From an uncultured bacterium (GTDB lineage Bacteria; Zhuqueibacterota; QNDG01; DTFT01), in assembly GCA_963736115.1 (NCBI GenBank), contig CAVTNR010000002.1:32001-96000 (forward strand): DNA of 64,000 nucleotides, read 5' to 3'. Made by a program: the position numbers and the translations under genes. A model generated the notes under the pieces. That model searched no databases, was not told the DNA's origin, and saw nothing but the letters and a program-made list of their open reading frames with translations. Shown here one piece after another: positions 16,101 to 52,092 of the stretch (positions within the stretch are counted from its first letter, which is position 1; each line of letters opens with the position of its first letter).

Positions 16101-16395
16101 CCGCATCGAGTTCGGCTTCGATGACGGGGAAGGCGGCCGCGTGTTCTTCGTCCGGGACAACGGCATCGGCTTGGACATGAAATACGCGGACAAACTGTTC
16201 AAGCCGTTCCAGCGCCTGCAGTCGGAGTTCGAAGGAACGGGTATCGGGCTGTCCACGGTCGCCCGGATCATCCGCCGGCACAACGGCCGCATCTGGGTCG
16301 AGGGAAAACCCGATGTGGGCGCCGTCTTCTTTTTCACGCTGGACAATCCCGCGCACGCGGAAGACGGAAATCCGGTCCGGCCGCAATCGGATTGA
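13102..16395 (+). CDS. Sensor histidine kinase with periplasmic beta-propeller (Reg_prop) repeats and Y_Y_Y domain
   Basis: About 14 ED-x-x-G-x-LWIGT repeats; LPPGNYVFEVKG; TM helix; SVSHDLRSPL H-box; NAWKF, DNGIG, GTGIGL boxes. Confidence 0.93.
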   Translation: MKARKKSVLFLLFGPLCMTFASLAAQTETVRFEKLSIEQGLSQSSVTSICQDRKGFLWFGTYEGVNRYDGYEFRIYRHNPDDPNSLIQNVIKDLKEDRSGTLWIATDGGLDRYDRQADRFIHYVHDPGDSASLSHNRVRNVFEDGQGTLWVATDNGLNRYDPESDRFVRYSNDPADSNSLCDNKVREIYEDRQGNLWIGTDAGLDCLDRKTGRFRHYRNVPGDPNSISGNHVISFGEDRNGGFWIGTWDKGLNRLDRRTGKFKRYMADPRNPKSLQYNTVRAIYEDRSGTLWIGTYGGGLERYDRETDGFTHFRSNPDDPISLSSDAVWCIAEDASGILWIGTDFGGISKYDRRKNQFEYHRSGSGTAGGRYRNAVNALYADPDDRGRILWIGTWGGGLCRLDRRSGEQVCYKNDPYDPESISNDVIRCIDKDRDGHLWIGTDVGLNRLDRRTGRFERFYCDPGNPNTLDYDNIFSLCEDSRGNLWVGSYYGGLNRFDRKSRRFIRYRTGSADSGAFNDNIVWSIKEDRAGRIWIGTDAGGLNRFDPATGRFAHYKRIPGNPNSISDNKVLSIHEDAAGILWLGTPGGLNRLDPADGQWRRYGRQDGLVSDAVQSIAGDPEGYLWIGTTKGLSRFDPRKNTFVNFNANDGLQGDEFSVNSCASAATGEMFFGGINGFNVFFPGRVKLNGFIPPVVLTDFQLFNRSVPVGEPVGGRVILKQSIMETPEISLSHRQNDFSIYYAALSFSAPDRNAYRVRLAGIEDEWNPAGPRRFATYTRLPPGNYVFEVKGSNNDGVWNEKAISLKIRIRPPFWKTAWFILLMSMTGLGLMAAGYINRTGKIKARNRELESRVRERTRQLEEANRELEAFTYSVSHDLRSPLRAMDGFSQAVLDEYGPKLDERGVDYLRRIRRGSQQLGRLIDDLLKLSRLARSEMNFKEIDIGRLAETIATDLRQSDPSRKAEFVIARDAIVHVDPDLLKVMLANLLGNAWKFTSKRPDTRIEFGFDDGEGGRVFFVRDNGIGLDMKYADKLFKPFQRLQSEFEGTGIGLSTVARIIRRHNGRIWVEGKPDVGAVFFFTLDNPAHAEDGNPVRPQSD

Positions 16396-16472
16396 AGCTC
16401 CCCGCCGTCCCGCTGCGCGGGATCAAGCTATTATATTAATAAACGATTGTAGACAAGCGGCGGGTCTTCAAT
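16391..16472. mobile_element. Palindrome ATTGAAG-CCCCGCCG/CAAGCGGCGGG-CTTCAAT interrupted by a 46-bp micro-element
   Basis: Inverted near-copy at 52012-52092; uninterrupted host-like copies at 36757-36788 and 16557-16578. Confidence 0.7.
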
Positions 16473-16734
16473 AGTGAACAAGTCAAATAACTTGGTGCCG
16501 CTTTGCGGCGAATCTTCTATCTGTAGTGAAGAAAATATATTATATTCGCTCGCTTACCCCGCCGCAAACGGCGGGGAATGCGCGAGCGATCAGATTCCGG
16601 CGTCGCGCGGTGACAACGACGAATTCTGGTTGCCGGCGCCGTCCGCTGTGGGAATGACCGGTCGTACGCCTCTTTAATGGTTCACCTCCCCAACCCTGAA
16701 CGCCCGCCGGATTCCGGCGGATCAAGGAGCCTGC

Positions 16735-18993
16735 ATGCATAAAGAAAGCGCGCTCATCCGGATCCTTCTGCCGATCCTCATTCTTTCCGCGGTTCCAGCC
16801 GGACTTACATCCGAGGCGTTCAAGCGCGAACTCACCCTTGAGCGGGAAACGGGTCGGCGGATCCGGCGCATCCCCGCGTCCTTCCTGCTCCTGGAGCGCG
16901 AACGCGCCCTCATCGAGGGACTACGCCTTCATCCGGAATGGAGAATCAGCGCTCCGCTTCGCAAGACCGCCTGGTCCTTCTCCGTGGGGTCCACGAGGGG
17001 GTGGTACGCCTATGATTTCGTGACCGAAAAGGATTACGTCGTGCCCTCGACCTGCCGCGCCGTGGGCGATAACTGTTATGTCTTCGTGGAGAACGCCATC
17101 TGGGGAACCCGGGTCACCCAGGCATCCGTGGATTCGATCCGGAACGTCTTCGATCTGCGGACTCCGGCCGATCCGAACCGGGGCGTCTACCGGATGGACA
17201 TCGACATCTTCGGATCCGTTCCGAACGTGGACGGCGATTCCCGCGTCATCATCCTGATTCTGGACATCCGGGATGATTTCACAACGACGGGCGGATACGT
17301 CGGGGGGTATTTCGACTCCACCAACGAATACGACATCTCGACCAGCAACCGCGCGGAAATGATCTACCTGGACGCCGACCCCGTGAACCTGTCCTCCGAA
17401 GACGACATCCGGGAATCCATGAGCATCACGGCGCACGAATTCCAGCACATGATACACTGGCATCAGGATGACAGCGAAATCACGTTCGTCAAGGAGGCCT
17501 GTTCTCTCGAGGCCGAGGTTCTCTGCGGTTACCCCATCTACGACCAGGATCATTACATCAACGAAACAAACACCACGCTCCTGGGCTGGCGGTACGGAGA
17601 GGACGGCGTGCATGGAGATTATTCGCGCGCCGCGCGCTTCATGGCGTATATCGGCGAGCAGGCGGGGACAGGCGTTTTCCGTCCCATGGTCACCAGCGCC
17701 AAGACCGGCATCGCCGGGATCAACGCCGGCCTGACCGCGATCTCGCTCGGCCGGGATTTCAACACGCTTTTCCGGGACTGGCTCGTGGCCAATATTCTGA
17801 ACGATCGGTCCTTCGATCCCCGGTACGGATACGCGGATCCGGGGCTCATGAAACCCGTTCCGATCGTATATCCGTTCTCAGCCGTGACGGATGCGCAGAC
17901 CGTCGAGCCCCTCGCGGCTGTTTACCTCCGTTTCCCGATAGGTTCCGGATTCCGCATCCGTTTCGAAACCGACAACCCGAATCTGCTGATCAAGGCGGTC
18001 GAAACCGGAGAGGCAGGGCCCCGCGTGATCGACATCACGCCCGGGGTCGAGTACGGAGAGCCCGCGCTCGACCCCGCGGCCGGCGAAAGGACGTTCATCT
18101 GCATGAACACCCATCTGACCCAGCAGTGCGTCGTATCCTACACCACCAACGGATCCGCGTCCGGAGCCGCGGAACTGAAATGGGACATGACCGAGCCTTC
18201 GGGCTATCTGACGCTTTCCATCCGCGATACGGTCTGCGTGACCTTCGACGCGATTCCCGGCGCGAAACTGGATTCCGTGCGCGTGGCACTGAGACGCGCG
18301 GGTACGATCACGGGAGGCGTCTGGCGCCACACCGGCGTGACCCGTCCCACCCCGCTCGGCGAACCCCTGGCTTTCCCCGTAACCGCGTCCATCGCCACCG
18401 AGACTCCCGTGCCCTACCCGGTTCCCTATGAAAACTGGGCGACCATTGACCTGACGGCGCACAACATCGACGCGGGGTCGCCTTTCGCCGTGGCCTTCAT
18501 CTACCAGGGCGCCGGAACCGTGGGCCAGCGGGTCATGATCACAGAGCAGAAGAGAACGGGATCGGACCACAGCCTGACCTGGATGAACGACCCCGGAGGG
18601 ACCAGTTCTCCGAACTGGTATTCCGTGGGGCCGCATCAGGACTCGGTTTTCGTCTACCTGGTCCGTGCCTATGTGAGCATGACCTCCGGCACGGACGGCC
18701 CTGCCGAACCGCCGGCCGCGTTCGCTTTGTCTCCGAACTATCCCAATCCTTTCAATCCGTCGACCCGCTTCTCTTTCAGGTTGGCTGTTCCATCCCGTGT
18801 TTCAGCGGACGTCTGGAATCTGACGGGACAACGCGTGGCCTCTCTCGCGGACAGGACCTTTCCGGCCGGGGAGCACGCGCTTGAATGGGACGGCAGGACA
18901 AACCAGGGCGTACCCGCGCCGTCCGGTGTGTATCTGATCCGTCTGCAGGCGGGAGGCAACGCGACGGTCCGGAAAATGGTACTGGAGCGGTAG
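16735..18993 (+). CDS. Secreted zinc metalloprotease (M30/M6-like) with FlgD/T9SS-type C-terminal domain
   Basis: GGYF, AHEFQHMIH zincin motif; NYPNPFNPST...WDG...PSGVY. Confidence 0.85.
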   Translation: MHKESALIRILLPILILSAVPAGLTSEAFKRELTLERETGRRIRRIPASFLLLERERALIEGLRLHPEWRISAPLRKTAWSFSVGSTRGWYAYDFVTEKDYVVPSTCRAVGDNCYVFVENAIWGTRVTQASVDSIRNVFDLRTPADPNRGVYRMDIDIFGSVPNVDGDSRVIILILDIRDDFTTTGGYVGGYFDSTNEYDISTSNRAEMIYLDADPVNLSSEDDIRESMSITAHEFQHMIHWHQDDSEITFVKEACSLEAEVLCGYPIYDQDHYINETNTTLLGWRYGEDGVHGDYSRAARFMAYIGEQAGTGVFRPMVTSAKTGIAGINAGLTAISLGRDFNTLFRDWLVANILNDRSFDPRYGYADPGLMKPVPIVYPFSAVTDAQTVEPLAAVYLRFPIGSGFRIRFETDNPNLLIKAVETGEAGPRVIDITPGVEYGEPALDPAAGERTFICMNTHLTQQCVVSYTTNGSASGAAELKWDMTEPSGYLTLSIRDTVCVTFDAIPGAKLDSVRVALRRAGTITGGVWRHTGVTRPTPLGEPLAFPVTASIATETPVPYPVPYENWATIDLTAHNIDAGSPFAVAFIYQGAGTVGQRVMITEQKRTGSDHSLTWMNDPGGTSSPNWYSVGPHQDSVFVYLVRAYVSMTSGTDGPAEPPAAFALSPNYPNPFNPSTRFSFRLAVPSRVSADVWNLTGQRVASLADRTFPAGEHALEWDGRTNQGVPAPSGVYLIRLQAGGNATVRKMVLER

Positions 18994-19163
18994 AACGAAT
19001 GTCATGCCGGCAAGCTTCGGTCGTGGATTTCACTTGACTGGACGGTTTTTTCGGGTAACTTGATCAAGGCGATTGAAACGGCGTGATCGAATCGCGCGCT
19101 GACAAGGCAAGCCATGGCGGGGGGAATCCGCCCATCTCACGAACGAACCTGGAGAAAATCCGC

Positions 19164-20531
19164 ATGAACTGGCACAGGAAAACTCTGAAAACGAATACCG
19201 TGTGGTTTTTCATAGGCGCCGCGATCTTTCTGATCGTATACGCGCGCTCCGGAAAGGCTCTGGCCTTCAACAACAACAACGGCCGCAACCTGCCTTTTTG
19301 CGACACAACGATGACTCCCTCGTGGGACCCGCCCGGGGTATGGTATGAATGGTGCGGCCGCAGATGGTTCGTGCCCGACAACAGCCCCGGAAAAGCCGGC
19401 AGGACGTTTTATCAGAAAAAAGAACGGAAGGAACGTCTGGAAAGGGCGTATCGGGAAGCCGTCACGGCCATGATTCGGAAAGCGGCCCTGCACCGGACCG
19501 CAAAGGCGAACCGTCCGGCGGATTCAGATATCGAGATCACCTATGAGGACATGCAGACGGCCTACGCCCTTGGTTCGGACTTCATCGAATCCTATGCCTT
19601 TCCTGAAAATGTCCTGATGGACATGGGAATCGAAGATCCGGAGTTCACGGCCCCGCAGCACTGGATCCTCCCGGCGGGCCTGGACTTTTCGACCACGCTG
19701 ACGCGGAAGATCATGGATCCCGAAGACACCCCGGACACGGAAGCATCGCTCGAAGCCACGCATTGCCTCTATGCCAAGTCCCCGAATCAGGGCATCGAAC
19801 TGTACGAATACTTCCTGCTGGACGAGGACGGTCTCTGGCTGATGGGCCAGGCAATGGAAGACCTGGATTTCTTCGACTACACCGACGACGAGATCATGAC
19901 CCTTCCGCTGGATTATTACACCGATTATCAGTCCGGATCCGGGGAGCTGGAAAACTGGCAGGCGGACGGGGACACGACCTGGTACGGCGACGACAATTAC
20001 CAGGTGGACGCCTGGTATTACTGGTCCGAGGCATACGGCACCATCGAGACTCCGGATGACGGTCCGATTGAAGTCATCAAGATCGCTTATCAGTGGATAT
20101 GGTCCGATTGGGCGGTCAACGAGGAGTCAGCGGACGGCGAGGACACTCTCCTGGATTTCGACAACGGCACGGAGATCTATTTTTACAGCAAGGACGGGCA
20201 TCAGATCATGATTTCCATCGATTCTCTCGGAGTGGAGACCTCCGGCCTGGTGAAGCCGGATGCCGTGTATTATCAGAAAGTCCGGAATCCGGGCTCCTCG
20301 GTGGAGAAGGAACGCTCCGTGGTACACCCCGGGTTCCGGGTTTACCCGAATCCGACCGGAGGCATGATTCATTTCGACCAGCCCGCCAGCTTCACGCTGT
20401 ACGACGTGCTCGGCCGGCGGGTTCTGTCGGGGAAAAATGCCGACCGGGCGGATCTGTCCGGCCTGCCCAGAGGCCTGTATTTCATCAAACCCCTGAAGGG
20501 CGCGGCTCAGAAAGTGTTCGTCCAGAAATAG
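19164..20531 (+). CDS. Secreted protein with T9SS type A sorting domain
   Basis: Hydrophobic N-terminus, acidic core, VYPNPTGG...YDVLGR...LSGLPRGLYFIK. Confidence 0.8.
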   Translation: MNWHRKTLKTNTVWFFIGAAIFLIVYARSGKALAFNNNNGRNLPFCDTTMTPSWDPPGVWYEWCGRRWFVPDNSPGKAGRTFYQKKERKERLERAYREAVTAMIRKAALHRTAKANRPADSDIEITYEDMQTAYALGSDFIESYAFPENVLMDMGIEDPEFTAPQHWILPAGLDFSTTLTRKIMDPEDTPDTEASLEATHCLYAKSPNQGIELYEYFLLDEDGLWLMGQAMEDLDFFDYTDDEIMTLPLDYYTDYQSGSGELENWQADGDTTWYGDDNYQVDAWYYWSEAYGTIETPDDGPIEVIKIAYQWIWSDWAVNEESADGEDTLLDFDNGTEIYFYSKDGHQIMISIDSLGVETSGLVKPDAVYYQKVRNPGSSVEKERSVVHPGFRVYPNPTGGMIHFDQPASFTLYDVLGRRVLSGKNADRADLSGLPRGLYFIKPLKGAAQKVFVQK

Positions 20532-20612
20532 AAACGGCCCTTCATCCGTAACCGGATTGGCAAGCCCCGTTTTTCTCTGCGGGGCTTGTTATTTATAAAG
20601 AGGCGGGATCAA

Positions 20613-22172
20613 TTGAAAATTCATCCATTTCCCTGGTGGATCGCGGGCGCCGTTTTGTACGGCATATCCTGGCCCATGCCATGGGATGCGAATCTGTCCT
20701 TTCTGGCGTGGTTTGCCCTCGTTTTCCTCCTCATCTCCCTTGAAAAAGCGAAAGGATTCTGGCGGTTTGCGGGAATCACATGGGGATTCACCTTCATCTC
20801 TTATACGATCTGTTCCGGCTGGTTCCTGGACATTCCCACCAACAAGATACTCATCGGCATCGGAGCCCTGACCGAATCCTTCGGCTTCCCTCTGCCGTTC
20901 ATCCCTTTTTATTTCATACAAAAGAGGATCGGTTTCAGACGATCCGTGTTCATCCTGCCTTTCCTGTTTGTGCTCGGGGAATGGGCATACTGTTCGATGG
21001 AGCACAATCTCAGCTACCTGCTGGTGGCCCATTCCCAGACGGCGAATTGGCGGCTGATTCAATACGCGGATTTGTTCGGGTTCCTGTCCGTCACGTTCTG
21101 GGTCGTCCTGTTCAATGTCCTGCTCTATTCCGCCCTGGACCGATCGGATTTCCGCCCGCTCTCCGCGTCCTTTCTAAAACGGGCGGTCCCCTCCATCGCC
21201 ATGATGGTCTGTGTGCCCCTGGCCTATGCCGCGCTTCAAAACCATCGGCTCCGGGACCTGTCGACGGACCGGATGAAAATCACGATGATTCAAACGCGGT
21301 TCGCCCCGAAGCCGGAAGACGAACAGGCGGCGAAAAACCTGGACCGGACCGTCGAATTGACGGACTCCGTCGATTACACTCTCAAAGAGGGCGGGCTGAG
21401 CCACGACCTGGTGGTCTGGCATGAAGGCGCCATTCCGATGGGCAACAAGCCCGAGATCCGGCGTTTCGTCCAGGGTGCCGTCAATGACTGGCAAATACCC
21501 CTGCTGTCCGGGATCGAATTCTACGAGCGGTTTGAAAACACAACACACAGACAGCCCGTCAATCGCGTGGTTCTGTTCGTCCCGAATCCGGATTCGACGG
21601 ACCGGCCCCAGTATTACGACAAGATCAGTCTCGCGCCGGGATGGGAGAGCATCCCGTATCTGTCTATATTTCACAAAGCGGGGATCCGGTTCAGGAACGA
21701 GCACACGTTCCATAAAAAAGGGGATCGGGTCCGGGTGTTCGACGTTCCCGGCCGAATCCGGCCTTTCACGATCGGCACGCCGATCTGTTTCGAGCAAAAT
21801 GCCCCCTGGCTCTGGAACCGCATGGCCCGGCTTGGCGCGGAGGGCTTTGTTCAGGTGTCATTCGAGAGCTGGTTCGGCAGAACGTATTTCCAGAAACAGG
21901 TCGCTTTCATCACCCGGCTCCGGGCGATCGAGACCCGGCACAGTGTGGCGCGGTGTTCCAACGGAGGGCTTACGTTTTTCGTGGATCCCTTCGGCAGGAT
22001 TTATTCCCCGGCGCGCGGTTCGGAATCTTCAACCACGGATTTTCTCCCGCTCACCCGGACGGTCACCTTCTATTCGCGGCATCCCGTCCTCTTTCCTCTG
22101 ATCTGCGCGATCGTTTCCGCCGCATTCTTCGTCTATGCCCTGTTCCGGCCCCGCCGGCCCGTCGTATCGTGA
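20613..22172 (+). CDS. lnt: Apolipoprotein N-acyltransferase
   Basis: Multi-TM N-terminus, IQYADLFG, nitrilase triad E (WHEG), K (YDK), C (ICFE), RAIETR. Confidence 0.88.
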   Translation: MKIHPFPWWIAGAVLYGISWPMPWDANLSFLAWFALVFLLISLEKAKGFWRFAGITWGFTFISYTICSGWFLDIPTNKILIGIGALTESFGFPLPFIPFYFIQKRIGFRRSVFILPFLFVLGEWAYCSMEHNLSYLLVAHSQTANWRLIQYADLFGFLSVTFWVVLFNVLLYSALDRSDFRPLSASFLKRAVPSIAMMVCVPLAYAALQNHRLRDLSTDRMKITMIQTRFAPKPEDEQAAKNLDRTVELTDSVDYTLKEGGLSHDLVVWHEGAIPMGNKPEIRRFVQGAVNDWQIPLLSGIEFYERFENTTHRQPVNRVVLFVPNPDSTDRPQYYDKISLAPGWESIPYLSIFHKAGIRFRNEHTFHKKGDRVRVFDVPGRIRPFTIGTPICFEQNAPWLWNRMARLGAEGFVQVSFESWFGRTYFQKQVAFITRLRAIETRHSVARCSNGGLTFFVDPFGRIYSPARGSESSTTDFLPLTRTVTFYSRHPVLFPLICAIVSAAFFVYALFRPRRPVVS

Positions 22173-22217
22173 CGTCGAACCGGAACGGGGGTTCGGCCCG
22201 ACATATTGAAATTCAAC

Positions 22218-22257
22218 AACAGTGGCTCCGGGGAAGAAATCCCGGAGCCGCTGTTTT
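22218..22257. terminator. Intrinsic terminator between convergent lnt and serpin genes
   Basis: AACAGTGGCTCCGGG...CCCGGAGCCGCTGTTTT stem with T-run. Confidence 0.6.
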
Positions 22258-22301
22258 GCCCTATCCTGGCCGCGAGAAGAACCTCCCCCCAGCCGGGGCA
22301 C

Positions 22302-23534
22302 TCACTGCGGGATGGTTTCGATTCTCCCCATGAACAGCATCGTCCCGGACGTCTTCTCGTAAATCGCGAAAGCGAAGGGCCGGTCGAAGCGGATCACGCT
22401 TTCGTCCGGTCCGGCCGAAGTCTCCCGTATTTCCACGACTGTCACGGCCGCGGCCTCCGTTCCTTTCTCGTCCACCTCGACGAAGGATTTGTGATAAACA
22501 TCGCTGATGTATGGCCCCAGGCTTCCCGTGATCCGGCTGAAATCCGCGCCGCCGCCGAAAGCGACGCTCATACCCAGCGCCTTCAGTGCGTCGCTCAGGG
22601 TGATTTTGTATTCGACCTTGAATTTCGGCAAGTATAGATCCATTTCACCTTTCACGAAACTCCCCTTCCAGCCCCGCCAGGCCGCTTCCGTCCAGCCTGA
22701 GATGAACGCGTCCATGGAGGTTCCCTCCTCGGGCAGAAACAGTGCCATGGCGTATTGTCCGTTGCCATAGGCCAGTTCCACGGCCCGGAAAGCCGGCGTC
22801 CGGAAATACCCGATCTCCGCCTTCTGCGACATCATCCGGCAGGACAAGGCGGACCCGCCGTCGGGATGGAAAAAATCATCCCGCGTGGTTTTCGGATCAA
22901 ATGCGTACACCCAGGTTCCCTTGAAATACACCGCATTGATCAGAAACATCACCGTCAGCGGATCAATTTCCTCGATCATTCGGTCGATACGGCCGTGCGT
23001 GTTGTCTGAAATCCATCCGTTGATGACGTCCGGCGCAGCCGGATCGGAGAAATCCATCTCCCTGACCGCGGCGTCGAAATACCGCCGGTTCATGTCGATG
23101 AAAGACGGTTGAACCGGATACCCGAGCCTGTACCAGATGGAATTCGCAATTTCCATGACCGTTTCAGGATCCGCCGCTGGCAGAAAGTCGAGAAGACCCC
23201 GGTAGGAGGCGTTGATCTCGTCCTGGGTCATGGTCCCGAAGCCCAGCATCGTCCGCATGTCCGCCTCCGTGCGGCCCGCGGCGCCGTTCAGCGTCATCCC
23301 CAGGGCCATCGAAACGGAGAACGGGGAGACGAATACATTCTTCACACCCTCCTCCCGGCACACTTCCGCGAACAGGTTGAAGCCGAAAGCATTGGAGGCC
23401 TCGGACACACGCTTTTCCTGAGCGGTCAATTCCCGGACCGGCCGCGGATCCGCGTTCTGTATCGTGGACAGGTCGCGGTCACAGGAAACAGCCGCCAGAA
23501 CCGCGGCTGCGGCGAGAAAAGAGAATTTCTTCAT
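22302..23534 (-). CDS. Serpin (serine protease inhibitor), lipoprotein
   Basis: Lipobox LAAVSC; NVFVSPFS, NAVYFKGTW, LPKF, hinge EKGTEAAAVT, FDRPF. Confidence 0.95.
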   Translation of the reverse strand: MKKFSFLAAAAVLAAVSCDRDLSTIQNADPRPVRELTAQEKRVSEASNAFGFNLFAEVCREEGVKNVFVSPFSVSMALGMTLNGAAGRTEADMRTMLGFGTMTQDEINASYRGLLDFLPAADPETVMEIANSIWYRLGYPVQPSFIDMNRRYFDAAVREMDFSDPAAPDVINGWISDNTHGRIDRMIEEIDPLTVMFLINAVYFKGTWVYAFDPKTTRDDFFHPDGGSALSCRMMSQKAEIGYFRTPAFRAVELAYGNGQYAMALFLPEEGTSMDAFISGWTEAAWRGWKGSFVKGEMDLYLPKFKVEYKITLSDALKALGMSVAFGGGADFSRITGSLGPYISDVYHKSFVEVDEKGTEAAAVTVVEIRETSAGPDESVIRFDRPFAFAIYEKTSGTMLFMGRIETIPQ

Positions 23535-23632
23535 TCCGCACTCCTCCTTCATTGCGCCGGATGGCTGGTCAACCAATCCGGAGACCGAGGATACAAATGA
23601 ATTGTCCTATCACTGCGTCCAACCGATCCATA

Positions 23633-24695
23633 TCACCATTCACGCGTGATCCCCAGGGAAGCGATTGTTTTTCGGTAGTACAGGGCCCGGATCGGCGATT
23701 CGTTCCTGTAACGCGCGGCCCTCATCCGGCCGGTCCAACCGTTTCCGAAGCGGCGGGACAGATCCAGAAGGGCCTGGCTGTTCGTCTCATCCTCCGCGTC
23801 CGGCCGGATCCGGATGAGAGCCTCCAGGCCATCGGCGTACGTCTTCTTACGATGCGTCCAGAACGCGCGGACATTCAGGCCCCAGGGCAGCATTTTGCCG
23901 AACCCGACCTCGAAGAAAGGGATCCCGGAAGGAATAGCCGTAGCTGTTGGACCGGTTCCCCTGCATGGAAAACCGGCACATCCAAAGGGCGCACCAATAG
24001 GCTTCGATCGAAGCAGCGGTTTCCAATGTCCGATCCCTCTGACGCTTGTCCAGAAACCGCCATTCGAGTTCCGGAGATTCCAGCCCGGTGCGTCCGACCG
24101 CCCGCCTTTCGAATTCCAGGGACCTGGAACACGCCCGGAGCGACCACTTGACCGACGGCAGGGGCGAGGATTCCACGGCCGCGCTCCATTCCGAGGAGCG
24201 GAAATCGAAGGCGCTGGACGGCGTGTAGTCGAAACCTCCCGCCGACCATCCGAGCCGCACTACCGCGCGGCCGAAGAGGTTCATTCGGAAGAAGGGCGAC
24301 GCGCTCCAGGCCGCGTATCCGCGGCCGTTCCGCATGAACGTTTTGGTCCTGCCCCGCAATTCCGCTCCGGTCGAAAACACCTTCCGGAATCCGGTCTCCG
24401 CGGACAGGCCCGCGGTGTGCACATGCCGGGTCTCGGACGGGTGCTCTGAGTACACGTCCGCGCCTGCCGAATAATCCGCGGACAGGGCCAGCCGACCGGC
24501 CGGCCGGACACGGCCTCCAATCTCCGCCCAGACCCGGCCGATCCGGTCCGGAACCGCGGCGCTGTCCGATTCGAAAACATTGGAGTCGCTGAGAACCGCA
24601 AGTGAAATTCTCGCCGCGCCCTGTCCGCCTGATGCGGGCAGAGCCGTCAGAACGAGCCACGCCGGAATGAAGACGAGGGCGGGAAGCCGTTTCAT
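23633..24695 (-). CDS. Outer-membrane beta-barrel protein (one frameshift near 23917)
   Basis: Signal peptide, DSNVF, alternating strands. Removing one base restores FRDPFFEVGFGKMLPWGL... and the protein then ends SLGITREW. Confidence 0.65.
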
Positions 24696-24710
24696 CAGGG
24701 GGCCGGCCGC

Positions 24711-25712
24711 TCAGTCCGCCGCTTCCGCGGCCTTTTTCAGGAACCATCGGGCCCTGGCCGCGAGGCTGTCCGCGCGTGCGGCCAGTCTGCGCTTGTATTT
24801 CTCCAGTCGATCGATGCGGGTGTTCAGGTCAGCAGGATCGTTTTCCACGCCGGCCCCTTCCGCAAGCCAGCCGGACGGCAGTTCCGGGCCGGCATTTTCT
24901 CCGTTCAAGCCGGGCGGCACGTCGATCAGATTGCCGCGAACATCGAATGTCCCCTCTTTTCCGACCATCCCGCCGGATTCCATGCGCCGGCCCAGCAGTT
25001 CGTCCTGCTCGTTGAACAACGCGAGTTCCCGCGACAGTTCGGCTACGTTCCGCCGTACATCCCTTTCCTCGCGGAGCGACCGGATGCGGCCGTCGATTCT
25101 CAGCATTTCATCCTGCGCGGAATCAACCTCGTCCTGAAGCAGGTTCGCTTTCAGACGGATATCCTCCGGACTGTTCCACGGTTGAAGCCGCACCGGATCC
25201 GACTGCCGGACCGGCGCGGGTCCGGCCAGCAGGCGCGATTCCCACGCCATTTTCCGTTTCAGCAGATCCTGCAGGACCGAGGCGAGTTCGCCTTTGCGCC
25301 TGCTGTCCGCGTTTTCCGCCTCTTCCCGGATTCCGGCAAGCGCCGCCTGAATCGCGCCGATCAACCGGCCCACGGCTTCATCACGCCTTTTCTGGCAGTC
25401 CGCCAGGTCTTTCCTCAGCCTGTTCATCTCTCCATCGAGCCGTTGGGAGGTCTGAAGCCATTTTTCCATCTGCCTGTGCTCTTTGGGGCTGAGCATTTCC
25501 TTTGAGCGGAGCAGATCCATCTGAGCGGCAACCGCTTCGCCGTCCTTCTGAATCCGGCTCCGGACGGACTGGAGTGAATCCAACGATTTTTCAATCGAGA
25601 GGCTCAGTTTTTCGAGGGATTCGAGGTCATCCGTGCCGGTAGGACCGGATGCGTTCAGGGGATTCATCCATTGCAGAAAAAAGAGGAAGGTGATGGAATA
25701 GACTGTCTTCAT
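24711..25712 (-). CDS. Secreted coiled-coil hypothetical protein
   Basis: Signal peptide and heptad-rich E/K/L/R composition; overlaps the upstream stop (ATGA). Confidence 0.7.
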   Translation of the reverse strand: MKTVYSITFLFFLQWMNPLNASGPTGTDDLESLEKLSLSIEKSLDSLQSVRSRIQKDGEAVAAQMDLLRSKEMLSPKEHRQMEKWLQTSQRLDGEMNRLRKDLADCQKRRDEAVGRLIGAIQAALAGIREEAENADSRRKGELASVLQDLLKRKMAWESRLLAGPAPVRQSDPVRLQPWNSPEDIRLKANLLQDEVDSAQDEMLRIDGRIRSLREERDVRRNVAELSRELALFNEQDELLGRRMESGGMVGKEGTFDVRGNLIDVPPGLNGENAGPELPSGWLAEGAGVENDPADLNTRIDRLEKYKRRLAARADSLAARARWFLKKAAEAAD

Positions 25713-27121
25713 GGCGGGCCCGATCCGGGACTAATCCCATATTTTTCAAGCTTATAATAGAGCGCGCTTTCCTTGATGTTCAGCAATTTGGCCGCTCTGG
25801 CCTTGACGCCGCCGGACAGGGTCATGGCTTTTTCAAGCAGTCGTTTTTCAACCGCTTCCAGCGTGGCGTCGAGATCCATGCCGTCTTTCGCAACATCCAT
25901 GCCTTCGGGTCTGACTGCGAGAAAAGAAAGATTTTCCGAGCCGATCCGGTTGTTATCCGAAAGCACCAGCGCCCGTTCCAGAACGTTTTCCAGTTCCCGC
26001 ACATTGCCCGGCCAATCGTACGATTCGAGAATGCGGATGCCTTCCTCGGAGAGAGAGGCTCCGGGCTTCCGCATTTCCGAGGACAGCTTGCGTATAAAAT
26101 GATCGGCCAGAAGCCGGATGTCCTCCCGCCTTTCCCGGAGCGGCGGAAGATGGACGGGCAGGATGTGCAGTCGGTAGAACAGGTCCTCGCGGAAACGGCC
26201 GGTGCGCGCCTCGGCCTGCAGGTCCCGGTGCGTCGCCGCGATGATGCGTACATCGACGTGAATCGTTTCCTCTCCGCCCACCCGCTCGAATTCGCGTTCC
26301 TGCAGGACGCGGAGCAGTTTGACCTGGGTGGAGGGCGAGATGTCCCCGATCTCGTCCAGGAAGAGCGTGCCCCCGTCCGCAAGCTCGAACCGGCCCCGCT
26401 TCTGGCGGATCGCGCCCGTGAATGCGCCTTTCTCGTGGCCGAACAGCTCGCTTTCCAGAACGCCCTCGGCCAGCGCGCCGCACGCCACGCGGATGAAGGG
26501 TCCCGCGCTCCGGCCGCTTCTCTCGTGAACGGCCTGCGCCACCAGTTCCTTGCCGGTTCCGCTCTCGCCGAAAATCAGGACGGAACTGTCGCTGGACGCG
26601 ATTTTCCGGATGTCCGCGAAAACGGCATTCATGCACTCCGACCGGCCCACGATTCCCTTCTCGCCCACCCGGCCGACGAATTCATCACGCAGGTACAGGT
26701 TCTCGTCCGCCAGACGCGAGGCGGCCCGGCGCTCCGACACCAGCCGGAATACGCGGTCCGCCTTGAGCTTCAGGGCGTCTCCGGAGAACGGCTTCGGCAG
26801 GAAGTCCCACGCGCCGGCCTTCATGGCCTCCACCGCGAGATCCACCGTGCCGAAGGCGGTGGCCATCATCACTTCGGTTTCCGGCCGCAGACCTTTGATC
26901 CGGTTGAGAAGCGCCAGGCCGTCCATTCCGGCCATGCGGAAATCCGTAATCACCAGGTCCGCGGGTCTCTCCTCGAAAATCCGGAGAGCCGCGGCCCCGT
27001 CTGATTCGGCCCGCACGTCATAGCCTTCCTTCTCGAGAACGGCCGTCATGCCCTCGCGGAGCGTCTCATTGTCCTCGACGACGAGGATGCGGAATGCGGT
27101 GCGGTTGGAAGAGTCTGGCAT
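25709..27121 (-). CDS. Sigma54-dependent NtrC/AtoC-family response regulator
   Basis: Receiver (ILVVED...ITD), [36 protein letters not shown], Fis HTH. Confidence 0.95.
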
Positions 27122-27157
27122 GGAAGCGGTCTCTGTTTGGTTGGGACGGATCAGAAA

Positions 27158-27255
27158 GTTCATGGTTCATGGTTCATGGTTCATAGAAAAAAGTAATTAG
27201 GGAATCTTCAATCATTACTTATTTTTCTATGAACTATGAACTATCAACCATGAAC
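27158..27255. repeat. Inverted heptamer arrays (GTTCATG)n ... (YATGAAC)n around an AT-rich core
   Basis: Seen directly; second element at 27454-27540. Confidence 0.8.
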
Positions 27256-27276
27256 CGTTTTTGAGCCCTTCTCACT

Positions 27277-27324
27277 CTCCAGCGCGAACACGGTTCCTTC
27301 GGGACCGGTCCGGACAAGGGAGGC
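27277..27324 (-). pseudogene. Orphan fragment homologous to the C-terminus of the kinase at 30947..32443
   Basis: SLVRTGPEGTVFALE versus SLLRSGPDGTVFVLD (10/15 aa, 31/45 nt, counted by hand). Confidence 0.6.
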
Positions 27325-27453
27325 GGACCTCGCCGGGGAAGGAGTGACTCATATGATTCTCAGTAAATTGCATTCCTTCGGCGGCTGTCCGCGGACGGGA
27401 TGATGGATAATATAACTAAAAAATGGGGAAAAATACAGAGGAAGGAAGAGAAA

Positions 27454-27540
27454 GGTTCATGGTTCATAGAAAAAAAACAATTTGGAAAAATTTGATCATG
27501 ACGTTTATAACTATGAACCATGAACTATCATCAATGAACT
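27454..27540. repeat. Second inverted-heptamer element
   Basis: GGTTCATGGTTCATAG ... CTATGAACCATGAACTATCATCAATGAACT. Confidence 0.75.
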
Positions 27541-27545
27541 TGTCT

Positions 27546-28379
27546 TCACCCGTCGCGCGCGCAGCGGAATCCATTGTGTGAGATGCCGTGATAATCGCCT
27601 TTACCGGTGCAACGGAAATCGTTGGTGCAATGAATGGCCGCGCTCAGCCAGCAGCCGCCTCGATAAATGCGATAACTGCCTTCAGCCGGTCCCTCCGGAT
27701 CGGTCTGCAGCGTGCTGTCGTAAGGGGCGTCCCAGTCCGAACACCATTCCCAGACGTTCCCGGTCATGTCGTACAGACCCAGTTCGTTCCGCATCAGCGA
27801 TCCGATCGGATGCGTCCGGTTCTCCGAGTTCTTGTCGTACCATCCCACCTGGGCGATCGAATCGCTTCCGCTGAAAGCCGTCCCTCTCGACCGGTTACCG
27901 CCCCTTGCCGCGAATTCCCACTCGGCTTCCGTCGGAAGCCGCATGCCGTAAAACCCGCAGAACGCGTCGGCGCCTTCCCACGTGATGTTCAGGGCCGGAT
28001 GATTCTCCAAACCCGGCACCGGAGCCCAGCCGCCCCCGGTTTTCTGAACCCCCCAGGGGTGCGAAAACACAAGCACGGCCCCGCGGTGCGGTCCCGTTTT
28101 CACCGTGTCGCTTCCGTATTCGAAGAGGAATCCGGCGAACTCGGCGTTGGTCACCTCCGTCCTGGAGATGAGGAAATCGGAGAGTGTCACGGTGTGCCGG
28201 CGGTCATTCCCCTTCTCGGCCGAGCCCATCTGAAACGTTCCCCCCTGAATTTGGATCAATGCCATGCCCGGGGGCTGGCGTTCCGGTTCGACGGCCGATT
28301 TCCGAATGCAGGCGGAAGCGAGAAGCACGGCAGCCGGCAGGAGCAGCCGGGGCCATTGGAGCGAACGTGAAGTGGTCAT
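27546..28379 (-). CDS. FGE-sulfatase (SUMF1/GldK-like) domain lipoprotein
   Basis: Lipobox LASAC; GGTFQMG, TEVTNAEF, RLPTEAEWEFAARGG, GLYDMTGNVWEWC, RGGCW, GFRC. Confidence 0.92.
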   Translation of the reverse strand: MTTSRSLQWPRLLLPAAVLLASACIRKSAVEPERQPPGMALIQIQGGTFQMGSAEKGNDRRHTVTLSDFLISRTEVTNAEFAGFLFEYGSDTVKTGPHRGAVLVFSHPWGVQKTGGGWAPVPGLENHPALNITWEGADAFCGFYGMRLPTEAEWEFAARGGNRSRGTAFSGSDSIAQVGWYDKNSENRTHPIGSLMRNELGLYDMTGNVWEWCSDWDAPYDSTLQTDPEGPAEGSYRIYRGGCWLSAAIHCTNDFRCTGKGDYHGISHNGFRCARDG

Positions 28380-28536
28380 TCATCTTCCTTTCGGCGTGAG
28401 TCGGTGCGGAATCGATCGTCACTCGAAACGAACGGCGGCATCCCGCTGCCGGTCCGCATGGGTCCTGTGCAGGTTCCAGGCCCGCGGGAGGACGCGTCTC
28501 CGCGCGTGCTCCCGTGTCTGTTTCCCGGCGGAAGCG

Positions 28537-30727
28537 TCACCGGATCAGAGCGACCTTGAGCGCATCGCGGCCGGATCCGCCGGTCACTTCGATCACGTAG
28601 ATGCCTCCGGCGGCGGGACGACCTCCGTCGTCCGCACCGTCCCAGAACCAGGCGGCTTCGTGCCCTCCCGGCGCCGGCGGATCGATCGCGTCGAGGCGGA
28701 TTCTACGGCCGAGCGCGTTGAAAACCCGCACGCGGAGAAAACTGGCCTCATCCCGGGATCCGCCCTGAAAACGGACTTTCAACCGGACCCCGCCGTTGGA
28801 CGGATTCGGATGCGCCCCGAGAATGCGCAGGCTCCCGGCCGCGTGAATCTCCGCCGTCCCATCGACCCGGGTCTCGATGGAAGCCACCAGCACGGCTCCG
28901 AATTCGGCGGAAAAGGCCCTGCCTCTCCGTTCGAAGGACGAAACGCAAATACCCGCCTTCGGCTGGGTCGTGAATTTCATCTCCGCGGTCCGGAGGATAT
29001 CCCGCCACGTCAAACCGTCCTCCGAGCTGGAAAGCCTGACCCGGTCACCCCTTCTCTCCACGCGCACGCGGAGCGGAGGGTTCAGGGAGTCCCCATACAC
29101 GGAAAAAATGGTTTTCCCGTTCGGGATTTTCCGAACGTGCGTGATGAGCTGCCCCGAACGGGTCAGAAAAACGGAGAAGTGGGGGCTTCCCGGATCGAGC
29201 GTCTCCCGGATCATCAGGCCGGCCTTGCTGTCCGGATGCAGGCGCCTGCAGGCCGGCGATCATCGCTTCGATGCGAAAATCCCCTTCCGTGTCCCGGTAG
29301 GCGAACGTGCAGGCGTCCGCGGTGTCGTGCACGTCGCTCGCATGTCCTGATAGAATCAGGCCCGGGTCGTTCTCGATGAAGGACCCCGGATCGGGGACGT
29401 CGCCGATGTCGTCCCACATCCAGGCCTCCCTCCGGAACGGCCACCGGCTTCCGCTTCCGACGGGATTCGAACGGGAGGATGCGTCCCTGAGGTCCGTCAC
29501 CGTCAGGATGCAGGATTCCTGCGGCTCCAGCGGCGGCAGGGAGAGAACGGCCGACCGGCAGCCCGGGCCCGGATCGGCGGACAGGACGGTCCGTTCCGGC
29601 AGAACGCCGAAGTTCCGGGCGTCCCCGAGTCCGCTGCGCTCCATCGGTTCGCTGAACCGGATGCGCACCCGCGATGCAAGATCCGATGTCTCTATGACGT
29701 GAACGGACGTGATCCGTGGCCGTGCGGTGTCGGCCGGGGTCGTCACGACCAGGCGCGGATTGTCCTGAGATTCATCGAGGCGGTAATCAACGGCGCGTAT
29801 TTCATACACGTGCCGCGCTGCATCCGCGAGACCCGCGTCCACGGCCTCTGTTGTATCCGTCTCCAGAATTTTAAGTCCGTCCCGCATCACCCGGTAGAAC
29901 CAAGTTTCCGGATCCGAAATCACCGGATTCCATGTCAGACGGACCGAATGGTCCGTGAGATCGGCGGATGCCGGATTCCCAGGAGACGGAGGCCCGGTAG
30001 CCGGTTTTCCCCGGAGCGTCTGGCTGAACAGCCATTTCGGCAGATCGGGCGTGTGATACGCCTGATCCCCGATGTTGTGCCCTGTTCCCGGGTATTCCGT
30101 GTACAGGACCCGAACGGATCCCAGCCGGAGCAGGGCGTCGACCATTTCCCTCGCGCGGTCCACCCACACGGTGGCGTCGGCTTCACCGTGAAAGACCCAG
30201 ACCGGCAGGTGGATGATGCGGTCCGCCCGCTCCGGATCGGACCAGCCGCTGATCGGCACGGCCGCGGCCACGCGTTCGGGATGGTCTATTGCGAAGGTCC
30301 AGGCTCCCCCGCCCCCGAGCGAGGCGCCCGTCACGTAGACGCGGTCCGTATCAATCGGAAGCGTCCGGACAAGGGAGTCCACCAGCGCCCACGTCAGGGA
30401 CTCGGCATCCTTCTCCCAGCGCCCCCCGCTGATCTGCGGAACCAGGACAAAACAGGGTCGGAGGGCCTGGTTTTCCGGCTCTGCCCAGATTCGGGCTCCG
30501 GATTCCAGGTTTTTAACGTTGTCCAGACCCAGGCCGCCCGAGCCGTGCAGGTAGAGGATCAGGGGATAAACAGAATCCGCATCCGAAACGGAGGGGGTGA
30601 ACAGGCGGTACGGCATGTCGAATCCGTACCCGGTTCCCGAAAAAATCCCGGACCCGAAATCGTCCGGACCCGCGGACGCGGACAGGAACGGGAGAAGAAG
30701 AAGGGATCCGAACGCGAGAATTCTCAT
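28537..30727 (-). CDS. Secreted multidomain alpha/beta hydrolase (COG4099-like) with FN3, Ig-like, DUF1349-like and FlgD-type C-terminal domains; frameshift near 29240
   Basis: PLILYLHGSG, GASLGG, WVFHG, GH. Removing one base joins ...DSKAGLMIRETLDPGS...; C-terminus HPNPSN...WDG...GGIY. Confidence 0.8.
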
Positions 30728-35456: not shown

Positions 35457-35507
35457 TACATTCTCCTTTCCCGCACACGCTCCGGTGATTCGCGTATCTC
35501 TCGGTGT

Positions 35508-35586: not shown

Positions 35587-35595
35587 GATATAACA

Positions 35596-39363: not shown

Positions 39364-39369
39364 CTTTTA

Positions 39370-39864
39370 TTACATTCCCCATGAATTCAAATCGTATACG
39401 GTTGAACCTTTGAACGGATAATCTTTCCATTCTTCCACTATACCCTTACGAACTGGATTGTCGAGTATGTATCCGACATGCCGCTTCAGATCTTCATCCT
39501 TCCTCAACACGTGGTCGTAAAAATCCTTCTGCCATTCAAAACCGGTATTATTTTTCGACATCCAATACCCGGTTTTTTGTTTAAAAAGAACCAGGCATTT
39601 CCGGATATCTGACTCCTCGGTTATCCCCTGAATGGTCAAATGCAGGTGATCAGGCATGAAAAGATAAATATGGGCCTGACAGTCATGACGCTCCAGTTCA
39701 TGAATCAGGATGTCTTTAAAAACAGTGACGAGGGACTGCTTGACGAAGGCTTTTCTTCGGTTCAGAATACAGCAGGTAAACGTCACAACGTTGAATCCTC
39801 GGTACAGGCCGCCATCCAGACGGTGTTTCTTTTCCTGTACAAACCGTGCGGGTTCGTTTGCCAT
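39370..39864 (-). mobile_element. REP-associated tyrosine transposase (RAYT/TnpA-REP, HUH Y1 family)
   Basis: MPDHLH HUH motif, WQKDFYDH, YILDNP; RBS GGAGG; AT-richer than neighbours; flanked by GTAG REPs. Confidence 0.92.
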
Positions 39865-39879
39865 TCTCCCTCCCAAGAA

Positions 39880-40067
39880 CGCACCCTGAAGGGTGCGGCT
39901 ACCCAACCATCCCAATATTACGTTAATATCCGGTAGCCGCAGCCTTTAGGCTACGCAAAAGCGCAAGCTGAAGCTTGCGGCTACCAAACCATCCCGATAT
40001 CACGGTAATCTCCGGTAGCCGCAGGCTTTAGCCTGCGCAAGAACGCACCCTGAAGGGTGCGGCTACC
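39880..40067. repeat. BIME-like array of five alternating GGTAG REPs upstream of RAYT
   Basis: 39880-39903(-), 39932-39955(+), 39962-39985(-), 40014-40037(+), 40044-40067(-). Confidence 0.9.
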
Positions 40068-40082
40068 AATGCCCGGCCGCGC

Positions 40083-51700: not shown

Positions 51701-51941
51701 CAACCCCTCCACCGTGATCCGGTTCGCATTGCCCGCGGCCGGGAGGGCGAAGCTGACCGTTCTGGACGGCAGGGGCCGGACCCTCCGCGTTCTGATGGAC
51801 GGTCGTATTGCGGCGGGCCGCCATCAGGCGGTCTGGAACGCCACGGACGGGAACGGCCGGCCGGTCCCGAGCGGTTTGTATTTCTATCGGCTGCAGACCG
51901 GCGAAGGAACGCGGACAGGCAAGATGCTGTTCCTTCGCTGA
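48774..51941 (+). CDS. Large secreted protein with about 7 carboxypeptidase-regulatory-like (CnaB-type) repeats and a FlgD/T9SS-type C-terminal domain
   Basis: Repeated SGRVTD...G.Y...GL..G.Y...YY.....A..V units; NYPNPFNPST...SGLYFYRL. Confidence 0.85.
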   Translation: MKRTTLFFSLAIAFALSGIRPPDAGAAGTADSPASRFERLRMHRNVWQKVLERNAGFTAVRISSADDTTGSISGFVLGLDSVAVQTAYVEAIPILSIVDRDTVFGPSHGGVSRVSPDDLSFSITGLAPGPYWVYACADGYTPEYYNGGGDFPEADTVHVEPDLDVSGIVFNLQKITPGTGGLSGFILDEADGAPIGDAWVTAVASWEPYTYGRAMTDKQGRFVIGGLKSGAYTLSAGAEGYIEEFYYNAPVWELASAVTVTEPDTVSGLVIRLTEGGTVSGRVTDKEGGPVSDAWIQVYSDASGDSTWMDSTRTEARKFDAGASTEEDGTYRITGIPEGEYFVTAYSQWNPWMQNQIWYDGATDPSSATRVPVRSGVETPGIDFVFDFTAADGSVSGRVTDLDGRPIEYAQVQLFSDGSDAWGNSIWMTASTDANGDYSLYFVPEGRYYVNCWAQAGWSSVFRYWPDSEDFAGAQLISVDGVTAVANVDFILPLAPGTASVEGTVTDAAGHPLTGAYVEINPFQSGAADSGKSGKEFCAWAYSDSDGVYRVKGLPAGPVQVHCSYWENESRGEEWYSGASVPEDADPVTLSDGQMVSGIDFSLTVRRFYGSIAGTVMDAETGAPVPGAVVEIQPLRSDWVGFWRGTMKTTLITDAEGKYSAERLLPGVYLLSAYRKGGFSYYRNAPVPEMADSMALEGGGELTADFSLVIRNEGPGIIRGTVTYGLGGPLRGGLEETGPDGTSAGRSRLLKADSDMPFPYAVVIAKPVVTIQSWPESERFYNTLSAQDGSYELTGLPAGEYYVWSFGGSTAPQYWDHTTDPAQAQTIQVEAGTPADGVDFELDQMLFYAFDAIAPGRNQNAASVHGTVQDGSGEPVSSAVVLLLNISGQAVSSAVTGPDGVYALSAAAGDYVLQAGKLGYGTAFNGGAKSAEEAVAVRLETGSLEVNFSLGAASAVPQGPVLPDRMTLDGNYPNPFNPSTVIRFALPAAGRAKLTVLDGRGRTLRVLMDGRIAAGRHQAVWNATDGNGRPVPSGLYFYRLQTGEGTRTGKMLFLR

Positions 51942-52011
51942 TACCGGATCCGAATCTGTCAGCGAGCGTATTCCCCGGCTTCGCCGGACCAAGCTATCGG
52001 ATTATTTCATT

Positions 52012-52092
52012 ATTGAAGGCCCGCGGCTTGTCTTCAATAACTTAGAAATACAATAGCTTGATCCCGCGCAGCGGGCGGCGGGGAGCTTCAAT
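52012..52092. mobile_element. Inverted copy of 16391-16472 (palindrome plus nested micro-element)
   Basis: ATTGAAGGCCCGCGGCTTG-[TCTTCAAT-N16-AGCTTGATCCCGCGCAGCGGG]-CGGCGGGGAGCTTCAAT. Confidence 0.7.

Follow-up and report, generated by a model that had tools for sequence, protein, structure and literature searches.

A 42-46-nt single-hairpin element nested within other repeat hairpins in a genus of the Zhuqueibacterota

How do short hairpin repeats come to lie inside one another? The question is raised by a 64,000-nt stretch of DNA (hereafter, the window) from an uncultured bacterium of the Zhuqueibacterota (GenBank assembly GCA_963736115.1, contig CAVTNR010000002.1, positions 32,001 to 96,000), in which a short hairpin-bearing sequence, here called M, splits other palindromes. 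The original prediction, made from the letters of the window alone, took four such copies for a minimal non-autonomous element that targets other repeat hairpins. We followed M through the source genome (G000; a draft of 3.34 Mb in 31 contigs, 60% G+C, 87% complete) and its relatives, among them the other three genomes of the same genus (G001, G002 and G003) and one genome from another family (G026). The prediction is supported: about 141 copies occupy at least eight classes of host with exact junctions, and empty hosts lie beside filled ones. On balance, M is probably a non-autonomous micro-transposon of 42-46 nt, resembling repetitive extragenic palindromes (REPs) and moved as single-stranded DNA (ssDNA) by an HUH enzyme of the Y1 type supplied in trans.

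Anatomy and copy number of M

M consists of YCTTCAAY, an A/T-rich spacer, the tag WGCTTGRT and one GC-rich hairpin, often followed by a final A. The 5' 25-30 nt are A/T-rich, unpaired and non-palindromic. The hairpin abuts the tag directly; its sequence differs by subfamily while the tag is kept. There are no inverted terminal repeats, the ends being YCTTCAAY and GCGGG(A). For a generic search we used Y, CTTCAA with at most one change, 14-21 nt, TTGRT and a directly abutting perfect hairpin. This pattern gave 149 copies in G000 and 5 in the reversed genome, which served as the control. All 149 copies have a perfect stem of at least 4 bp after the tag, and DNA folding also shows the hairpin. 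By type, the hairpins were CCCGC (103 copies), CCGGC (19), CCCGT (6) and GCCGC (5), plus others. A strict core search returned 106 matches, and an nhmmer profile search 190, of which 121 had E<1e-5. The census of M in G000 is thus about 141-149 copies per 3.34 Mb.

Measured from Y to the end of the hairpin, M is mainly 42 nt (20 copies), 44 nt (44) or 45 nt (50) long; with the final A it reaches 46 nt, so that the main sizes span 42-46 nt. The spacer falls into discrete classes of 13-16 nt, rarely up to 19. The prediction had given M a fixed length with a spacer of exactly 16 nt. The spacer is indeed 16 nt in the four predicted copies, but the length is not fixed across the genome; although such variation had been named as a ground for rejecting the element, it does not bear on mobility. 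Nor are the four spacers of two sequences, as had been thought: all four are different, and two of them are related. Many spacers in the genome end in TATAAT directly before the tag, although the genome is 60% G+C. M was considered as a sigma-70 promoter and rejected by eye, the spacing from CTTG to TATAAT (14-15 nt) being too short.

Almost every right end of M belongs to a complete element. In 121 of the 124 tag-plus-hairpin right ends of G000, the left end sits 19-27 nt upstream, and neither solo right ends nor a longer, gene-bearing version was found in the assembly. The prediction had suggested a gene bounded by the ends of M as something to look for, and had named the terminal fragment of a known insertion sequence (IS) as another origin, which is unlikely.

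In the window, we relaxed the predicted pattern for two deviations and used 100 shuffles as background. It matched at 16409-16452 (-), 35182-35225 (+), 35519-35562 (+) and 52032-52075 (+), exactly where the four copies had been placed, and in none of the shuffles. The core is shared as a family motif rather than letter for letter: copy 1 reads CTACAAT, and the hairpin of copy 3 has one mismatch (CAGAGGG). The M hairpin with at most one mismatch occurred five times in the window against 0.40 expected, and two further copies carry other hairpins (16465-16509, +; 51975-52019, -). The six copies, for which extragenic position was checked, all lie between long open reading frames (ORFs), and they occur in both orientations between co-directional genes. 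The copies and their hosts in the window are as follows.

9685-9718, + strand: empty host-E hairpin, ACGCTCCGGGAGG, 7-nt loop, CCTCCCGGAGCGT
16408-16453, - strand: M copy 1, 46 nt including the final A; CCCGCGCAGCGGG hairpin behind a GCTTGAT tag, spacer of 16 nt, 5' end of the T type
16465-16509, + strand: additional M copy with hairpin GCCGCTTTGCGGC, after the 3' foot (CGGCGGG^) of the host of copy 1, on the opposite strand
16536-16600, + strand: empty A2-type host hairpin with conserved flanks, CCCCGCCG-CAAA-CGGCGGGG at 16557-16576
35181-35226, + strand: M copy 2 (46 nt), ending in G and tagged TTGGC; follows ACGCTCCGGG...CCGGG within the 5' arm of its host-E hairpin (35158-35249)
35518-35563, + strand: M copy 3 (46 nt), also ending in G and tagged TTGGC; follows ACGCTCCGGG in its host-E hairpin (35508-35586)
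36757-36925, - strand: composite of family G with both small CTTG-loop hairpins empty; other copies and other species hold M in either or both
51955-52091, + strand: 137-nt composite with two M copies, running from TCTGTCAGCGAGCG to GAGCTTCAA
51975-52019, - strand: additional M copy with hairpin CCGGCGAAGCCGG, after the 3' foot CCGCGGG^, in the same composite as copy 4
52031-52075, + strand: M copy 4, 45 nt, lacking the final A; CTTG loop on one side and CGGCGGGG arm on the other

The base pair closing the hairpin, formed by the last tag base and the base after the hairpin, had been proposed to co-vary. Copy 1 has T-A here, copies 2 and 3 have C-G, and in copy 4 T and C are unpaired. Across the genome, a T tag goes with a next base A in 41 of 142 copies, G in 63 and C in 38; a C tag with G was found in two true copies by scan, plus copy 3 by eye. 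As a rule of M, this closing pair is suggestive only.

Metagenome-run contigs over window positions 16100-36000 were short low-depth pieces, none of which spanned an M copy, and the only runs identified contained few of the sequence words (0.13, 0.01 and 0.00). Contig joints near 16.4 kb stem from other repeat copies. At 26060-26723, contigs from three sediment metagenome runs stack up, many variants among them, to a summed depth of 170-480; probably this is part of a conserved gene that many organisms share, without relation to M.

Hosts, junctions and empty sites

Copy 1 splits the CTTG loop from the 3' arm of a CCCGCCG/CGGCGGG host hairpin (16391-16475), and the locus folds as DNA into an outer host stem with an inner hairpin (z -3.3). 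Copies 2 and 3 sit in the palindrome split between ACGCTCCGGG and AGG (host E), as had been described, and its empty form is that at 9685-9718. At the site orthologous to copy 2, G001 has only the left part of M, then the whole host-E hairpin. For copies 1 and 4 the earlier description was right in part. Both split CCCGCSG-CTTG from CGGCGGGG, but the sequence at 36757, named as their empty form, is a related, different composite; the best empty site for them in the window is the hairpin at 16557-16576.

The same precision holds across the genome. Among 141 copies, the base preceding M is G in 126, and the four preceding bases are CTTG in 53, CGGG in 37 and GAAG in 12. The break points of M are purine^pyrimidine steps, usually G^C, at the 3' loop edge or the 3' foot of GC-rich hairpins. 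Relative to loops, M lies on the strand reading CTTG in 49 cases and on that reading CAAG in 2. At least eight kinds of hairpin, other M copies included, hold M with exact edges, distributed as follows.

58 of 141 copies: 3' loop edge of hairpins of the CCCGCSG-CTTG-CSGCGGG type (A/G-type)
25 of 141 copies: opposite strand of A-type hairpins, directly past the 3' foot
8 of 141 copies, with about 8 more by eye among the unclassed: loop of the hairpin of another M
6 of 141 copies: tips of GTAGGTCCGAAAT-type REPs (REP-B)
5 of 141 copies: GGTAGCCGCAG-type REPs (REP-C)
4 of 141 copies: ACGCTCCGGG hairpins (host E)
Remainder of the 141 copies: other hosts

M is therefore not confined to the two composites seen at first. 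Its nesting in other hairpins, its own included, builds mosaics in the manner of Russian dolls. Where a copy starts with T, ends with A and lies in the loop of another M, its ends are unambiguous: the left joint is G^T and the right joint A^C, which sets the unit as running from Y to the final A. Elsewhere the ambiguity of the junctions is at most 1 nt. With M taken out in silico, the flanks of 47 of 141 copies again form a perfect stem (5 bp or more) across the junction, compared with about 22 when flanks were re-paired at random and 4 with a shifted flank. As had been noted for the four copies, no target duplication was seen in G000.

Empty hosts are common. The prediction called for a tally of filled and empty sites in the genome and its relatives; among the CTTG-loop hairpins of G000, 37 are empty and 49 filled (A1 hosts, 17 empty and 11 filled; A2 hosts, 13 empty and 11 filled). 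The A-type hosts are repeat families themselves, with conserved flanks. Relatives show extra host families, and an empty copy of each lies some dozens of bases from the filled one (L094 and L107; such labels denote genome stretches from relatives or G000 set side by side).

Orthologous sites were compared between G000 and relatives at flank identities of 83-96%, and one perfectly clean pair was obtained, with two less clean. At about 97.0 kb of contig C8, G000 reads CCCCACCG-CAAG^, a 45-nt M and ^CGGTGGGG, the joints being CAAG^...^CGGT; the G002 orthologue reads CCCCAACA-CAAG-CGGTTGGG, with the hairpin intact and empty. The flanks are 89% and 95% identical, and one base is common at the joints. 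Here the gain or loss concerned M as one exact unit, with no duplicated target. The second hairpin of this composite holds different M copies in two species. In the first of the less clean cases, a REP tip at about 30.6 kb of C9 holds three nested M copies in G001 and two in G000, and the extra closing half-stems match. In the other, the two hairpins of a composite at about 207.9 kb of C9 are both vacant in G001 and both occupied in G003, and G000 has a single hairpin, which is filled. Other M copies are conserved across species, one example lying at about 112 kb of C14; some insertions are thus old.

The family is narrow. The strict pattern matched 22-28 times in each of the three other genomes of the genus and 13 times in G026; it matched once in G028 and in none of 35 more relatives. 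A slightly wider pattern run over 167 genomes of the phylum added one single match (G107). M is thus present in four of four genomes of one genus and in one other genus among these 167 genomes.

The host composites, 130-300 nt long and made of one A2-type and one A1-type hairpin, themselves behave like mobile units. The whole composite from TCTGWCAGCGAGCG to GAGCTTCAA, following GAA, is present or absent between species in three orthologous comparisons, with an ambiguity of AA only (L111, L114 and L059 against G000 C9 at about 20.8 kb and C27 at about 67.6 kb; the window example is 51955-52091). The guide-like ATT at its hairpin foot would predict an A^A cut under the rule discussed below. The composite of family G (170-300 nt) combines a long hairpin, GGCCAGAAGCC...GGCTTCTGGCC, with two small ones behind it that have CTTG loops, and in its copies neither, either or both of these small hairpins hold M. 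In relatives, family G occurs at many sites that are empty in G000 (eleven loci: L058, L067, L071, L077, L078, L081, L085, L086, L089, L091 and L113).

Covariation of the ends and candidate enzymes

The first base of M (Y) and the R of TTGRT change together. The combinations among the 149 copies are C-G in 91, T-A in 50, T-G in 5 and C-A in 3, so that pairing is kept in 141 of 149. This is the strongest pair within the element (mutual information, 0.76 bit), and each length class contains both states. Copy pairs that differ at no more than two other positions have the same state in 93 cases, a double switch in 9 and a one-sided change in 2; one pair differs solely at Y and R. In relatives, Watson-Crick pairing was found in 27 of 28, 38 of 39 and 28 of 29 copies. 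The pairing is not accounted for by descent alone: exchange between T..A and C..G copies across 26 nt would yield mismatched forms, which are rare (8/149).

A published rule offers a simple explanation. REP-associated tyrosine transposases (RAYTs) are described in parts of PMC8266576 as using a guide tetranucleotide 5' of the REP hairpin to select the cut dinucleotide by cross complementarity, GTAG specifying C^T; altering the tetranucleotide shifted the cut dinucleotide as predicted. Cleavage 5' or 3' of the REP, with strand transfer, is described in PMC3333891, in a passage that also proposes that excised single-strand circles re-integrate at another cleavage site. The Y-R covariation in these sequences fits this rule (PMC8266576): as far as covariation indicates, the bases at the cut would pair with the last two guide bases. 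TGRT beside the hairpin foot would be the guide, its last two bases pairing with the bases that flank the cut. The predicted cut is then A^Y, the last base of M joined to the first, and this junction would represent a circular or end-joined intermediate. These two bases coincide with the ends read from the unambiguous junctions. M would be cut and rejoined as ssDNA, in trans, by a Y1 HUH enzyme of the RAYT or IS200/IS605 type. The original prediction had proposed an HUH-type mechanism; the covariation agrees with it, and the link to an enzyme is conjectural, no RAYT being flanked by M. The other register, TTGR with a cut at Y^C, may also apply, and the IS608 guide model (Supplementary Figure S1 of PMC8266576) may bear on the choice.

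Three RAYT genes were found in G000 (NF047646 at 87.8, 90.2 and 133.9 bits; cut-off, 80), one of them in the window.

39370-39915, - strand: RAYT gene (NF047646, 87.8 bits), with GGTAGCCGCAG-type REPs of its own, and no M, at its flanks

The window RAYT is no more than a candidate for an enzyme acting in trans. The gene is bracketed, as in a classical REPtron, by arrays of GGTAGCCGCAG / CGCACCCTGAAGGGTGCGGCTACC-type REPs at 39330-39366 and 39868-40075, and elsewhere in G000 M copies were found within loops of the REP family of this RAYT. Close homologues of RAYT-B are confined to the genus (41 genomes compared). No association between M and RAYTs was seen across the 41 genomes: RAYT-like matches (E<=1e-10) occur in 23 of them, most without M. 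TnpB was not found in G000, and TnpA(IS200) is not present.

In G001, a complete RAYT gene of 194 codons ends 8 nt before a host-E hairpin (L041; G001:C47:1-1940). The site is orthologous to window 35256-35500 (stretch compared, 35250-35510). In G000 this place, flanked by M copies 2 and 3, holds a 58-codon ORF (35280-35456, -), and G000 has no close homologue of the G001 RAYT (best tblastn identity, 23-29%). Host E may be the REP family of that G001 RAYT. An apparent flank motif beside a G026 RAYT was rejected as a duplicated gene end.

Several observations weigh against movement of M by a RAYT-like enzyme. As to the enzyme, M flanks none of the three RAYT genes of G000, each of which has its own, different REP family, in a genome that is only 87% complete. 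Thus M lacks the bracketing of a RAYT by copies of its repeat that defines a REPtron. An nhmmer scan of 23 RAYT loci, 20 of them from relatives, gave a single M match, about 1.4 kb from the gene. G026 has M-like copies but no close RAYT-B homologue (best identity, 36%). Classical REPs carry GTAG, unlike M. Between the guide T and the G that is the usual target base, only a wobble pair would form, and the final A of the A^Y junction occurs in only the 41 of 142 T-tag copies given above. As to the sites, only one orthologous pair is perfectly clean, and its indel may be an insertion or an excision, since the whole composite is absent from this place in G003 and the G001 contigs are broken here. 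Where copies 1 and 4 lie, relatives lack the entire repeat cluster, not merely M, and many copies have clearly spread within larger composites. A 9-10-nt piece of the host arm occurs on either side of M in G026 and at one site of G001: GGTTCTTTT, the 5' arm of the following hairpin, flanks each of the 13 G026 copies (L042-L054), and a truncated M in G001 (L004) is flanked by a similar repeat of ACGCTCCGGG. These repeats look like target duplication or a templated copy and are not explained by the model. The orientation of M shows no bias with local GC skew (62 concordant, 65 discordant) in this draft genome.

When the copies, which are not independent of one another, were divided by site, those of the loop type agreed with local GC skew in 30 cases and disagreed in 15, and those of the foot type agreed in 9 and disagreed in 26. 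The flank of A1 hosts agreed in 27 and disagreed in 13 (p 0.04, uncorrected). This suggests that the weak strand preference belongs to the host composites rather than to M.

Alternatives, known families and meaning

M might instead be an end fragment moved by a different enzyme, such as an IS91/Helitron-like Y2 transposase, an IS110-type enzyme or, in the manner of integron integrases, a tyrosine recombinase that uses folded hairpins. We regard this as unlikely. IS91 inserts after CTTG or GTTC, and CTTG^ is the commonest target word of M (53/141); the ends of M are asymmetric and no target is duplicated; and G000 has one gene of the IS110 family (C14:88161-88577, L056). However, neither M nor any host-repeat motif lies within 1.5 kb of that gene, and no Y2 transposase was found in G000, a weak negative since the control of the same search also gave no match. 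The lack of TnpB, of solo right ends and of long forms speaks against an end fragment as well. The crossover point of integrons is G^TT, unlike the junctions of M. The Y-R covariation is specifically predicted by the Y1 guide rule.

It is also improbable that composites alone were mobile, M having entered a few hosts once, with recombination or gene conversion and slippage deletions producing the filled and empty patterns. The original prediction had allowed for such a history, from only two insertions, and part of it holds. Relatives without the whole repeat cluster at the loci of copies 1 and 4 (the complete 51955-52091 composite is missing at the orthologous sites of G001 and G003) agree with it, and all 13 copies of G026 sit inside one longer conserved composite. 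Where M-bearing loci of relatives were set beside their G000 counterparts (26 + 15 loci), G000 has M at only one, L066; these loci show gain or loss of composites, not of M alone. At about 207.9 kb of C9, G000 has lost about 110 nt between two direct CCCGCCGCTTG repeats. But the clean C8 pair shares 1 nt of flank identity, too short for slippage; M lies in at least eight unrelated host classes and in itself, always at the G^ position; and recombinant T..G or C..A forms are just the 8 of 149 noted above. Composite spread with recombination accounts for much of what is seen; it leaves the clean indel, the many separate hosts and the kept pairing unexplained.

That M is a functional module (a small RNA, a terminator or attenuator, a protein site or a portable promoter), with Y-R as part of an RNA or DNA structure, is very improbable: its stable GC hairpin, the spacers ending in TATAAT, the intergenic position of all six window copies and the effects of REPs on mRNA stability mentioned in PMC3733652 would suit such a role, but there is no Rfam match at the gathering threshold in the window, both orientations occur between co-directional genes, M is nested in M and in other repeats, the hairpin sequence changes by subfamily while the tag stays, a 2-bp Y-R/C-G helix closing a 26-nt loop is unstable by itself, and turnover between species is high. 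None of these three alternatives explains the Y-R pairing as simply as the guide rule.

Movement as a REP-like unit by a Y1 HUH enzyme places M between known families. Like REPs and bacterial interspersed mosaic elements (BIMEs) with their RAYTs (PMC3333891, PMC8266576, PMC3479197), M is a short GC-rich extragenic hairpin with a conserved tag at its 5' foot; it exceeds 100 copies, forms mosaic clusters with other repeats and shares its genome with RAYT genes. Its tag co-varies with the base at the presumed cut site, as the guide rule predicts, and the published model of re-integrating excised circles, as set out in part of PMC3333891, would suit it. Unlike these REPs, M has (C)TTGRT throughout rather than GTAG or CGTC, the GTAG-tagged REPs of G000 belonging to other families. 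Also unlike them, it has a 25-nt non-palindromic 5' extension, flanks no RAYT, has a predicted cut at A^Y instead of C^T, and forms a discrete, exact-edged unit inside other hairpins.

M also resembles REPINs, REP doublets that form hairpins, which PMC3116915 and PMC3337134 describe, in the parts concerned, as small non-autonomous DNA persisting vertically, with a RAYT presumed to act in trans; as in REPINs, presence or absence differs between relatives. A REPIN consists of two inverted REPs, whereas M is a single, asymmetric hairpin unit of about half the size, and the orthologous M indel is one 45-nt unit rather than an inverted doublet moved together. Excision was seen for REP doublets and not for singlets, according to a passage of PMC3116915. 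The nearest description of nesting is a passage of Di Nocera et al. 2013 (PMC3733652), in which the GTAG-23 elements of T. roseum lie in small GC palindromes (CCGSSCC n3-4 GGSSCGG) that have hundreds of empty copies, and other REP dimers lie within longer palindromes. The likeness to M is a REP inside a small palindrome with empty copies; the passage mentions it in passing, with no orthologous empty sites, self-nesting, junction rule or guide covariation.

With IS200/IS605 elements and their gene-less derivatives, the palindrome-associated transposable elements (PATEs), M shares the lack of inverted terminal repeats and of target duplication, a hairpin near an end, insertion at a sequence-defined site, and a guide 5' of the hairpin that would pick the cut site. 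The left-end cut site of IS608 lies 19 nt 5' of its hairpin; that of M would lie about 25 nt 5'. Those elements have subterminal hairpins at both ends and a fixed 4-5-nt target, whereas M has one hairpin, at the 3' end only, and enters after G^ in other hairpins. Miniature inverted-repeat transposable elements (MITEs) are defined by terminal inverted repeats and target-site duplication, which M lacks, and no Rfam family matched it in the window. Cyanobacterial hairpin repeats of 21-27 nt, reportedly described by Elhai and co-workers in 2008, are said to be apparently mobile, nested in other repeats and without a known enzyme; they differ from M in sequence, size and phylum. In the literature searched, we found no single-hairpin unit with the ends of M, no self-nesting of M and no natural covariation of guide and cut site. 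M appears to work like a RAYT-processed REP and like the left end of an IS200/IS605 element, yet lacks defining features of each family.

The spread of REPs is still argued: cutting and rejoining of REP DNA by RAYTs has been shown biochemically, and the genomic evidence for movement concerns mainly REPIN doublets. In the M family, a discrete unit with one hairpin has ends that can be read exactly; filled and empty sites number in the dozens in one genome, with orthologous ones besides; and natural compensatory change maps onto a published guide rule. The family also yields a prediction of which bases are cut and how the cut shifts when the guide changes, and its insertion explains how Russian-doll repeat mosaics are assembled. 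We tentatively go one step further, as a possibility held with less confidence than mobility itself: M may be the smallest self-specifying HUH transposon, its TGRT guide encoding the A^Y junction of its ends, with any compatible RAYT excising it as a tiny ssDNA circle and pasting it at the loop edge or the foot of hairpins elsewhere. If so, the double switches between T-A and C-G would be natural retargeting of the cut site by guide mutation, and single REP-like hairpins, not REPIN doublets alone, would be mobile units.

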